25,930 nucleotides of DNA. It comes from a virus. Its lineage: Duplodnaviria; Caudoviricetes. Below the pieces are notes generated by a model, which was not told the origin of the DNA, did no database searches, and worked only from the letters and a program-made list of their open reading frames with translations. The position numbers and the translations under genes were made by a program. The first letter of the stretch is position 1. Each line of letters starts with the position of its first letter. The stretch covers positions 1 to 25,930 of the IMG/VR virus record IMGVR_UViG_3300037071_001344, one strand, 5' to 3'. Positions 22,250 to 25,273 of the stretch are shown here, piece after piece.

Positions 22250-22529
22250 AGATCACCACTGCTCATGCTGTATGCACACTGTTTTTGATGGGATGGCGGC
22301 CGCCTTGCATCGGGCGGCGGAATCGAACCGCGAATGGGAGACACGCTTTGGCGAGCGATGCAGGAGCATCGCCGCGACGTATGACATCGCGCCGGAAGAG
22401 GTGGCCAGGATCATTGGGGAGGCCGTCGTGCAACGCCACATCGAGAATGGCGGGGAAATGCTGGCGGTTGCGGATGTGATCGAGGGGGCCAGCAAGGCGA
22501 CGACTATCGATCCGCCGTCTTCTCGGTAG
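22242..22529 (+). CDS. Hypothetical protein
   Basis: AGGGGG RBS, GTG start overlapping the com-like gene. Confidence 0.5.
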   Translation: MAEDHHCSCCMHTVFDGMAAALHRAAESNREWETRFGERCRSIAATYDIAPEEVARIIGEAVVQRHIENGGEMLAVADVIEGASKATTIDPPSSR

Positions 22530-22665
22530 CTCGCTGGCCGGCGTACTGACGCAGGGCGTGCAGGATCAAGCTGTGGAGCGACCGATCATCCTCCTGAGCT
22601 AGGCGCTTGAGGATGTCGCGAAGGTCGGCCGGTAGTCTCAGAGTCATCGGTGTGCGCTCCTGCAT
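22504..22665 (-). CDS. Arc-like ribbon-helix-helix repressor
   Basis: MTLRLPADLRDILKRLAQEDDRSLHSLILHALRQY. Confidence 0.85.
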   Translation of the reverse strand: MQERTPMTLRLPADLRDILKRLAQEDDRSLHSLILHALRQYAGQRATEKTADR

Positions 22666-22678
22666 GGGATCAATCGTA

Positions 22679-22736
22679 CACCAGACTGGTATCAGGTATC
22701 TGTCTGGTGGTAAGATGATACCACTTAGATGTCTGG
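22679..22736. promoter_or_regulatory. Divergent promoter/operator with interleaved inverted repeats
   Basis: CACCAGAC/GTCTGGTG (22679-86, 22702-09) and TGGTATCA/TGATACCA (22687-94, 22716-23) around TGGTAAGAT (extended -10-like). Confidence 0.65.
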
Positions 22737-22743
22737 AGGGAAG

Positions 22744-23298
22744 ATGCCGGAACAGGACAAGCAACCCAGCGCCCGAGCCCGTCTTCGTGCATGGATTCGT
22801 CAGCAGGTTGCCGGCAAGTCAGAGGTCAGCCTGCCCGATCTCGCCGAGCGCGCCGTCAAGTGGGTGAGGCAGGACAAGGCGCTTGAGAGGGCGATGCTGG
22901 AGGAGTTGTTGAGCGCGCTGGTCTACGAGGAATCGCGGCTCGTCCTGGCCGATTCCAGGAAGGCGCCCAGGGGAGCCGGCGAAACACTGGTTCAGATGGG
23001 CGACCAGATCGTCAGCCGAGGCGCCCTCAAGAGCAGGGCCGCTGCGATGGAGCGCTTCTGGAGTCGCGCTAGAGAGCACGCCGGCTCCCGACACGTCCTC
23101 GTGCTGGACATGACCGAAGACGACTTGGCGCTGGCCGAGGCCGAGCGCCGCAAGCGCGGCGATACCGAATACGAGTTCGCCGACCTCTGGGCCATGCTGC
23201 GCAAGCGTCTGGAGAAGGGGCAGCGCGTCCGCGATGTCTGGTCCGTCGAAGAGATCGAGGCTGCCCGCCAGTCGATCAAAGCCGCACGGGCTGCCTGA
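22744..23298 (+). CDS. Uncharacterised 184-aa helical protein upstream of the pentamer array
   Basis: GGAGGG RBS; stop codon abuts the array leader. Confidence 0.75.
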   Translation: MPEQDKQPSARARLRAWIRQQVAGKSEVSLPDLAERAVKWVRQDKALERAMLEELLSALVYEESRLVLADSRKAPRGAGETLVQMGDQIVSRGALKSRAAAMERFWSRAREHAGSRHVLVLDMTEDDLALAEAERRKRGDTEYEFADLWAMLRKRLEKGQRVRDVWSVEEIEAARQSIKAARAA

Positions 23299-23338
23299 CC
23301 GTGGTCTCGTTCACTACCCGGGTTACTTCCCGGTATTC

Positions 23339-23683
23339 GACAAGTCGCGTCTTCTCATGCCACGTCCCTGCATTTCGCACCGACATCCCATGTCTCGGCC
23401 CGCCTATGCTTGCCGCGCCGACAAACCTGGCCCCCTCTCGTCAAGCCCGACCCCGCTCGCCCCTCGCCTCGCCGACATCCCACGCCGCGCCCGCTCAGCA
23501 CTCGACGTGCCGCGTCAAGTCTCACCGACTTACCTATCCGCGCCTCGCCGTGTCCCACCGTCCCGGGCCGTGCCTCGTCACGCCATGCCGAACCGACATC
23601 CCGTCTCATACCCGCCTACATCACCCCTGGTCCCACCGACGTACCCGCCCCAACCGCGTCTCGTCCCGCCAGCCCTGATCGAC
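23339..23683. repeat. Pentamer-periodic array (7 units delimited by GAC); candidate guide ncRNA
   Basis: GAC at 23339, 23382, 23420, 23474, 23527, 23595, 23638 and 23681; intervals of 40, 35, 51, 50, 65, 40 and 40 nt parse into NN-NYC pentamers. Confidence 0.85.
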
Positions 23684-23700
23684 AACCACTGGAGGAACAC

Positions 23701-24456
23701 ATGGGAATCTTCGACACCGACACGTTCACGACCTATCACGCCCGCATCGTCTTTCGGGACCGCCTGATGGGCGGCATCCCGATGAACCCGAAGATCATCG
23801 AAGGCTGGCTTCGCTCGAAGGCTGGCATCGAAGCTGAGGAGGAGATCCGCCGCGCCATGCTCCGCACGCTACTGGAGCTGGGCGCCGACGTCTCGCCAGA
23901 CATGACCTTCGAGGAATTGGAGCGGGCTTCCGAGGGACTGGCCGCACAGCGCCAGACCAACGGTTTCAAGGTTGACGAAGGCGGTCTCTACATCGAGAGC
24001 CGCCAAGTCAAAGCGATGCTCAAGGAATCGGCCAACATTCTCTATCCGTACACCGGCCCGAAGTGGGGAATGGTCCAGAAGACTACGACGAAGAAAGGCG
24101 TAACCGAGACTAGAGACACCGGCGGGAAGAGCGCCAAGAGCTTCATCGCGGAGCGCGTCTTCGTCTCGCCCGATCGTCTCCACGTTGGCAGGCCGGACCC
24201 GGACGGGATTGAATTGTTCATCGGACATGTGACCGGCCCGTCCGGGCCGCAGTCGACTCTGACGTATCACCAGTACGTCGAGCGCGCGGTGATCGAGTTC
24301 GATGTGATGGTTTGCCGTAACGAGGTCAAGGCCGAACACTGGCCGGAGATCTGGGTGCATGCCCAGGAGAACGGCATCGGCGCGCTGCGCTCGCAGGGAT
24401 TCGGGCGGTTCGACATCGAGCAGTGGGAGCGCTCCCCTCTTGCGCTAACCGCCTAA
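23701..24456 (+). CDS. Stand-alone Cas7/Csm3-like RAMP protein
   Basis: N-terminal strand YHARIVFRDRLMGG, LYIESRQVKAMLKESA helix, C-terminal G-rich loop GIGALRSQGFGRF; GGAGG RBS at 23691. Confidence 0.8.
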   Translation: MGIFDTDTFTTYHARIVFRDRLMGGIPMNPKIIEGWLRSKAGIEAEEEIRRAMLRTLLELGADVSPDMTFEELERASEGLAAQRQTNGFKVDEGGLYIESRQVKAMLKESANILYPYTGPKWGMVQKTTTKKGVTETRDTGGKSAKSFIAERVFVSPDRLHVGRPDPDGIELFIGHVTGPSGPQSTLTYHQYVERAVIEFDVMVCRNEVKAEHWPEIWVHAQENGIGALRSQGFGRFDIEQWERSPLALTA

Positions 24457-24490: not shown

Positions 24491-24537
24491 GGGCTCCGAG
24501 CCCCTACCAGTTGCGCACAGCGACGGGAAGGGGCTCG
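24491..24537 (+). promoter_or_regulatory. Leader hairpin sequestering the protease RBS
   Basis: CGAGCCCCT (24497-24505) pairs with AGGGGCTCG (24529-24537); inner stem GTTGC/GCGAC. Confidence 0.6.
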
Positions 24538-24541
24538 TTGC

Positions 24542-25273
24542 ATGTTGGAATACAAGTCAGTCGCCTTCCGAGTAAAGGAAATCGTCGACTTGGCCGGCGG
24601 CGGTTGGGAAGTCGGCGGGTACGCGAGCACGTTCGGAGGCACCCCCGACTCATATGGGGATGTTGTCGCCAAAGGTGCATTCCTCGATTCGATTGCCGTC
24701 CGGCCGACGAAGTTCCTGTATGAGCACTTCGAGCCGATCGGCAAGCAACTTGAGATCCGAGAGGATGACGACGGCCTCTTCGGACGCTGGTCGATCACAA
24801 ACACCCGCGCCGGCGAGGATGCCTACAAGCTGATCAAGAGTGGCGTCCTCGACTCGCTCTCGATCGGGTATTTCACCGTTGAGGCCGAGTTCCGCGAGGA
24901 CGGCATCCGGGTGCTACGCAAGGTCGATCTCTTCGAGGTCTCCTGTGTGGCGATCCCGGCAAATCAGCGGGCAACGATCACCGACGTCAAGTCGCTCGGC
25001 CGTCCATTCGAGCAGCACTCCGAGACCGTCAAGGCGGTTATCGGCGAGTGGCTCTCGCGCGTGAAGTCTGGGTCAGACATCCGCGCTACCGATGGCCGGG
25101 CTCTCTCCGAGGCGCGCAAAGCCTTGATTGCTGCCATGAGCGGGTCGCTCCGAAGTGCAGCCGATGAGGTCGACGCGCTGCTCGTGCCGCCTGATCCGCC
25201 CGAGGTTATCAACGTCGGCGCGGAGCTACGCCGCCGGCGCTATCAGAGCGCCGGCCTGGAGCGACCCGCATGA
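24542..25273 (+). CDS. HK97-family prohead protease
   Basis: GYASTF, DSYGDVV..GAF, YEH..PIG, EDDDGL, LSIGY, LFEVSCVAIPAN. Confidence 0.95.
   Translation: MLEYKSVAFRVKEIVDLAGGGWEVGGYASTFGGTPDSYGDVVAKGAFLDSIAVRPTKFLYEHFEPIGKQLEIREDDDGLFGRWSITNTRAGEDAYKLIKSGVLDSLSIGYFTVEAEFREDGIRVLRKVDLFEVSCVAIPANQRATITDVKSLGRPFEQHSETVKAVIGEWLSRVKSGSDIRATDGRALSEARKALIAAMSGSLRSAADEVDALLVPPDPPEVINVGAELRRRRYQSAGLERPA

Follow-up and report, generated by a model that had tools for sequence, protein, structure and literature searches.

A C-rich guide array with GAC punctuation beside a lone Cas7-fold gene suggests a VIPR-type RNA-guided cassette in a Caudoviricetes phage

In a stretch of 25,930 nucleotides of viral DNA (Duplodnaviria; Caudoviricetes; IMG/VR record IMGVR_UViG_3300037071_001344, positions 1 to 25,930; hereafter the window), we found a three-part cassette that consists of an accessory gene, an array of seven units and a lone gene with a predicted Cas7 fold. 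VIPR is a published phage RNA-guided system (10.64898/2026.04.26.720920), and we read the cassette as an RNA-guided DNA binder of the VIPR type whose guides are C-rich. Read with every third target base skipped (skip-1 rule), one of the predicted guides, U5, finds a match in the prohead-protease gene of sibling phages. We give this reading a probability of about two in three.

The array lies on the plus strand at 23339..23683. An automatic parse divides it into seven units framed by eight GAC linkers: U1 (23342-23381), U2 (23385-23419), U3 (23423-23473), U4 (23477-23526), U5 (23530-23594), U6 (23598-23637) and U7 (23641-23680). The units contain 8, 7, 10, 10, 13, 8 and 8 steps of five bases, each step being two bases (NN) plus a triplet of the form N-Y-C; a lone hexamer is found in U3. 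An earlier sequence-only reading of the window had described seven GAC-separated units of pentamers by hand, and the parse returned the same units and counts, with a final C in 63/64 steps and a pyrimidine before it in 59/64. Read on the minus strand, 29/64 steps are GGY and 12/64 are GAC. The period is robust against shuffled sequence: the lag-5 autocorrelation (z = 4.85) was reached by 0/1000 dinucleotide shuffles, the parse score is 135 vs a shuffle maximum of 65, and the array is the strongest period-5 stretch within the window. The entropy of the steps is 1.98, 1.82, 1.71, 1.32 and 0.12 bits at positions 1 to 5; the freedom of the third base is therefore close to that of the two NN positions. 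The earlier description of the first two bases as free stands, and it underplayed the third. A search of Rfam gave no match.

The gene behind the array (23701..24456, plus strand) encodes a Vipr-like RAMP protein of 251 amino acids. This open reading frame and the upstream frame of 184 amino acids (22744-23298) are both as previously described. A ribosome-binding site is found at 23691..23695 on the same strand, and 17 bases separate the last linker from the start codon. A longer frame that runs through the array (23410-24456) was rejected as the true gene, as the ribosome-binding site and the family alignment both place the beginning at 23701. The protein sequence has no match in Pfam, NCBIfam or PDB sequences. 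Its structural model (predicted local distance difference test, pLDDT, 89.6) includes a long hairpin, or thumb, at residues 169-194 and a G-loop at 225-235. The best Foldseek matches of the model are Cmr, type VII Cas7, Cas7-11 and Csm chains (E-values from 6.5e-7, template modelling score ~0.45), so that the gene product is modelled as a Cas7/RAMP fold. No CRISPR-like repeats were found within the window, and the whole 43.9-kb record of the phage has no match to cas1 or to the Pfam RAMP families, the sole cas families searched there. The earlier description of a lone RAMP gene is borne out by the model and its fold matches.

Comparison of profiles connects this protein to the Vipr of Escherichia phage SUSP1, a VIPR of type II. 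A profile of 50 family members matched a profile of nine SUSP1-type Vipr proteins with a probability of 84.6 (E-value 6.8e-6), compared to 21.5 against SUSP1 Vipr alone. By sequence, the RAMP protein is a remote homolog of SUSP1-type Vipr. The family itself is large, with 1727 clusters at E<=0.001 and 1006 at 1e-10. In a quick tree it forms a branch apart from the SUSP1-type proteins (Shimodaira-Hasegawa-like approximate likelihood ratio test, SH-aLRT, 99), although the branches are long.

Homologs of 23701-24456 had been named earlier as the place to look for further arrays, and we found these in 121/150 distinct gene rows. A C-last array is present on the gene strand alone in 115 rows, on both strands in three and on the opposite strand alone in three; of the 29 rows with none, 23 have a short flank. 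The linkers in the relatives are mostly GAC (890) or CGAC (207), and some relatives have four-base linkers. Across 873 closed units (7253 steps), the entropy is 2.0 bits at positions 1-2 and 1.9 bits at position 3, and the final base is C in 97.7% of the steps, a value partly fixed by the selection of units. On the minus strand, GGY accounts for 27.5% of the family steps, and in 52% the last base of the triplet is a purine.

Some further observations were made on the arrays of relatives. The first NN after each GAC is biased to TA, AA or TT (357/873 units), possibly a weak target or processing preference. Extra arrays are located kilobases from the RAMP gene, before other genes, in loci L022, L023, L046, L049, L050, L203, L210 and L212. 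Seven loci (L009, L059, L060, L066, L080, L090 and L107) have, in place of a long array, a single short unit that is nearly identical among them and is preceded by a conserved GC hairpin; the unit is situated just after the RAMP gene and no phage context was seen nearby. At L032:10001-11074 the RAMP gene is split into two reading-frame pieces. The same C-type system is present in the GenBank record of Microcystis phage Mae-JY09 (L001, PP395641.1, 37713-38459 and downstream), where it is annotated as hypothetical proteins, and this phage is a possible experimental model.

To read the target code across the family, we compared 588 guides of 8-16 steps to fetched loci with 2.26 million unmasked bases in total. 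At skip 1, 14 guides had a strong match, compared to 1, 1 and 2 guides at skips 0, 2 and 3 and to 1 and 4 guides in two shuffles; the strong-match tier was chosen after the counts had been seen, and chance would account for 1-4 of the 14. The matches cover whole units and leave the linker unmatched, which supports the proposal that each GAC-delimited unit is a separate guide. In the securely placed targets, the skipped base is the third position of a codon. These targets include RAMP genes of other elements (one guide matches perfectly in 3 loci, one perfectly in 8 and one at 23/26) and an accessory gene; three more are in genes that we take to be DNA methylases. The guides that match RAMP genes suggest, at the sequence level, a conflict between VIPR-like systems. 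Guides at L020:10826-10870, L196:9859-9898 and L114:614-678 were seen to match conserved motifs in the RAMP genes of other family members.

Two other codes were considered and rejected. Under a contiguous three-base code, the third base should equal the skipped base, but it does so in only 59/131 cases (p = 0.03; 50 expected). Without four doubtful guides, the count is 45/97 vs 36 expected (p = 0.012), and this weak excess could be a trace of the copying of guides from targets. With positions 2-3 as the pairing bases we found more short matches, but only two at 18 bases with one mismatch and one at 20 bases, in a count made without a shuffle control.

Among the window's own units, a target was found for U5 (23530..23594, plus strand). 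Sibling phages were fetched via their portal and protease genes, and U5 was compared to 6.86 million letters. In L270 (11034-11072), 24/26 bases of U5 match at a one-base skip along codons 85-97 of the prohead protease, with the third positions skipped. At the same site, 23/26 bases match in L284 and in L279-L281, which are probably a single phage, and 22/26 in L018, L276/L282, L277 and L283; the best U5 sites fall on corresponding codons of orthologous proteases. Among 300 shuffles of U5 the best had 5 mismatches, vs 2 for the real unit, and no comparable match was found at skips 0, 2 or 3 in the same 6.86 million letters. The earlier claim that the NN bases spell a gapped target is supported by this match and by the family counts. 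The phage's own copy of the site (24791..24829, plus strand, in its prohead-protease gene) matches at 19/26, that is, with 7 mismatches. Since U5 matches the sibling protease gene and not the phage's own copy, the sequences suggest that U5 likely silences competing phages. Furthermore, the sibling site (24/26) and the own site (19/26) provide a natural test pair.

The other units gave no such result. Of the gaps of 0 or 1 base outlined in the sequence-only reading, the one-base gap gave the U5 match and the gap of 0 gave none. For U1-U4, U6 and U7, nothing beyond chance was found in the fetched loci and the phage's own record or, at the amino-acid level, in 287 fetched proteins. The best self matches of the units have 3-7 mismatches. 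VIPR guides lack self targets at 80% or more; U6 and U7 reach 13/16 (81%) against their own genome, a level that is also reached at wrong skips and is thus probably chance.

We next consider which strand is the guide RNA. The arrays are C-rich on the gene strand and often lie between a stop codon and a ribosome-binding site, and the residues that read guanine are lost; for these reasons the sequences indicate quite probably a sense-strand (plus) guide with N-Y-C/NN steps. A ribosome-binding site and start follow within 40 bases of the array in 59/115 cases on the C strand vs 6/126 on the G strand, and 16/108 arrays take up all the space between a stop codon and the start that follows. In the stems before arrays, G-U pairs number 15 on the C strand vs 4 on the G strand (p = 0.019), although this count is small and includes related loci, and the far end shows no significant difference (5 vs 2). 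The gene strand is G-rich in SUSP1 and in 5/8 other G-type loci, including phages of 62-67% GC, and the remaining 3/8 showed no array. Both kinds occur at locus L040:3811-6074, one after the other on a single strand, where G-rich arrays accompany the G-type Vipr and a C-rich array accompanies the C-type.

The base-reading residues were compared to the structures of SUSP1 Vipr. There, the two guanines are contacted by D177, which reads G1, and by W178, which stacks on G2, and the pyrimidine sits with R179 in a purine-excluding pocket (10.64898/2026.04.26.720927). These residues align to A228, L229 and R230 of the window protein, whose G-loop motif is A-L-R-S vs D-W-R-P in SUSP1. An aromatic residue at the position of W178 occurs in 0/143 matched family G-loops (146 proteins) vs 9/9 G-type proteins. 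At the position of the pyrimidine pocket, the G strand offers a purine in 52% of the steps and the C strand an invariant C.

The sequence-only reading had favoured the opposite strand, and this is the strongest competing explanation: the same system and targets, with a G-rich minus-strand guide that an antisense promoter would produce and whose triplet, G-N-N, is relaxed in the manner of the published 'NNNNG'. The VIPR guides tested so far are without exception G-rich, and NNNGG, YNNNG and NNNNG variants as well as staggered arrays are listed (10.64898/2026.04.26.720920). The GGY triplets on 29/64 minus-strand steps also fit, the hairpin at 23315-23335 would become a 3' tail, and the target matches are identical for either strand. 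However, such a guide needs a promoter within the coding sequence of the RAMP gene here and, at other loci, within a variety of genes. Moreover, only 27.5% of the family steps are GGY, 52% have a purine at the pyrimidine position, the residues that read guanine have been lost, and true G-type systems have their G-rich steps on the gene strand, also in phages of 62-67% GC. Operon context, wobble pairs in the stems and base-reading residues thus all point away from the minus strand, and we consider the antisense guide an appreciable but clearly less probable option than a sense guide.

Several points nevertheless weigh against our interpretation of the cassette. They include the post hoc choice of the strong-match tier, the small number of wobble pairs, the two mismatches that the best U5 site retains and the six units without a target. 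Arrays were found on the opposite strand alone in 3/150 rows and on both strands in 3/150; by eye, three flipped arrays lead into a divergent gene on their own C strand, which the automatic call had missed. The types and positions of mismatches in the natural matches favour neither strand, and a G-strand RNA would carry the hairpin that precedes the first unit as a 3' tail, which is the arrangement in SUSP1. Finally, the homology to SUSP1 Vipr is remote, so that the residue equivalences are approximate; R138 is not conserved within the G-type proteins either.

With a C-rich sense guide, the cassette might work as follows. One sense transcript would span the accessory gene, the array and the RAMP gene. 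Some nuclease would cut it at the GAC linkers, where the five-base phase is interrupted, or close to them, giving guides of 35-65 bases without a structured tail; such processing is suggested by the anatomy of the array alone. By analogy to the SUSP1 structures, one protomer would bind each step, with N-Y-C held, the C in the pyrimidine pocket (R230, corresponding to SUSP1 R179) and NN exposed. As the SUSP1 work also suggests, the filament would pair with one strand of double-stranded DNA, skipping every third base, which is the codon wobble position, and its binding could block transcription in a co-infecting or resident relative. A block of transcription is proposed because neither protein has a nuclease match.

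Alternatively, the C-rich guides could act on messenger RNA (mRNA) and block translation. The plus strand of U5 would be complementary to the protease mRNA, and 4/6 guides with a securely placed target gene are complementary to mRNA. Furthermore, SUSP1 Vipr binds single-stranded RNA in vitro too (10.64898/2026.04.26.720927); in the same study, however, RNA-bound filaments were mostly incomplete. The other two of the six guides (L017 and L114) read like the coding strand and could pair with DNA alone. We therefore favour DNA as the target and regard an action on mRNA as improbable. Without a guide role, the array would be a structural element or a degenerate repeat; this would agree with the six units that lack a target, but it is highly improbable, as arrays accompany 121/150 family rows, skip-1 matches exceed the controls and the U5 match is far beyond the shuffles.

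When comparing the cassette to known systems, we find the closest likeness in the SUSP1 system (10.64898/2026.04.26.720920). Both have a phage-borne lone RAMP gene with an accessory gene, five-base steps with two variable bases, a one-base skip at the codon wobble position and targets (predicted ones in the window family) within competing elements, including other VIPR genes; self matches at 80% or more are absent apart from those of U6 and U7. The SUSP1 array is G-rich on the gene strand, whereas that of the window is C-rich there, with a single C as the invariant base. SUSP1 has 9-16 repeats followed by a structured 3' tail; the window has units of 7-13 steps (4/7 with 7-8), bare GAC linkers and no 3' tail. 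The proteins also differ in length (251 amino acids vs 195 in SUSP1 Vipr). The features specific to type II, namely GGY/NN on the gene strand, tailed arrays of 9-16 repeats and D177/W178, are all absent from the window system. The broad features of VIPR are present: a RAMP fold with G-loop and thumb, remote homology to Vipr, a minimal locus of RAMP and accessory gene, tandem pentamers with hypervariable NN and, by sequence matches, a skip-1 code. The earlier suggestion of a VIPR-like system is in line with these findings. As to the published wording of GGY/NN 'or a related consensus', the minus strand fits NNNNG in 63/64 steps and GGY in 29/64, and the plus strand fits no listed consensus.

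Other VIPR types (NNNGG, YNNNG or NNNNG, with staggered arrays; 10.64898/2026.04.26.720920) have tail-less arrays in which the end of one guide is the start of the next, as here; the staggered arrays overlap by 1 base, whereas the linker in the window has 3 bases. The comparison covered the text and the legends, and the window family may already be one of the seven published types. Non-canonical arrays with non-GGY triplets beside Vipr-like folds have been reported in 21 clusters (10.64898/2026.10.21.760802); the available part of that report names GAC/NN, CAC/NN, WGT/NN and TGH/NN, with neither an N-Y-C form with GAC punctuation nor targets. The Cas7, Csm3 and Cmr4 proteins of class 1 CRISPR systems share the RAMP fold; the window system differs from these in its gapped rather than contiguous pairing and has no CRISPR-like repeats in the window and no match to cas1 or the Pfam RAMP families in the 43.9-kb record. 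We found no C-rich or opposite-strand form of VIPR described in the text of the literature, including 10.64898/2026.04.26.720920 and the available part of 10.64898/2026.10.15.759431, although figures may show one.

We conclude that the C-rich, GAC-punctuated system is a variant of the published VIPR, and since the basic system has already been published, the surprise is limited. If the guides are C-rich, Vipr filaments read two different scaffolds, which would make this a second, orthogonal programmable system and would show that the base preference of a RAMP protein can change via two or three G-loop residues. With linkers of three bases, the array would be more compact than any other multi-guide array known for this class.

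The cassette lies between the prohead-protease gene and a gene that is presumably glycosyltransferase-like. Ahead of the accessory gene is a divergent gene of 53 amino acids on the minus strand (22504..22665) that matches the Arc/ribbon-helix-helix family PF03869 above cut-off and likely regulates the cassette. A probable promoter region is found on the plus strand (22655..22723); its 69 bases are identical to the region before a TIGR-Tas cassette in L282. By eye it includes, at 22708-22716, what we take to be an extended -10-like motif; a sigma-70 scan found no full promoter, and no terminator was found, on either strand. The accessory gene (22744..23298, plus strand; 184 amino acids) is vap-like and mostly helical and has 18 homologs; a relative lies <=3 kb upstream of the RAMP gene in 34/103 rows with enough flank. 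Its protein was modelled with pLDDT 87 and a predicted template modelling score (pTM) of 0.55, and it has no known family, no PDB match at E<=0.001 and no Atlas match at 0.9. Just before the first linker, fold prediction places a short hairpin (23315..23335, plus strand), which would be a leader on the plus strand or a tail on the minus strand. Comparable short hairpins were seen by eye before the arrays of L053, L054 and L056.

The position of the cassette appears to be an exchangeable slot. The cassette is absent and the interval is short in L270, L277, L279-L281 and L284. In the sibling record G408 (L282:7856-9930) the same slot holds a TIGR-Tas endonuclease (NF052498 above cut-off) with arrays, a copy of the ribbon-helix-helix gene that is 83% identical, and a gene of 184 amino acids that weakly resembles the accessory gene (probability 38, E-value 3e-4, C-terminal 69 columns). 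CC-spacer-TG boxes are present on the sense strand before and after the TIGR-Tas gene (compare PMC12045711). A rough scan found no reciprocal targeting of the window phage by the G408 TIGR spacers. A slot that is common to VIPR-like and TIGR-Tas cassettes suggests that phages swap RNA-guided weapons behind one promoter. Tentatively, one could go further: a large VIPR branch (over 1000 protein clusters) may have been rewired from GGY to N-Y-C, may cut tail-less guides from operon mRNA at GAC, and may occupy an exchangeable slot in which one promoter, one regulator and one accessory protein work with VIPR or with TIGR-Tas, a system unrelated to it. In conflicts between phages, the accessory protein would then partner RNA-guided DNA binders in general.

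Lastly, we looked at the source of the window. Its phage genes are a terminase, a portal and a prohead protease (24542-25273, Pfam match), as identified by Pfam and NCBIfam profile matches, and a fuller record of the same phage has 43,873 bases and is graded complete. In genome collections the RAMP gene has four matches, all in Chloroflexota bins; as the gene is carried by just 3/401 genomes searched within this phylum, Chloroflexota is a weak guess for the host. By eye, an inverted repeat is situated between the RAMP gene and the protease start (24495-24550), and a similar stretch is found in L282.
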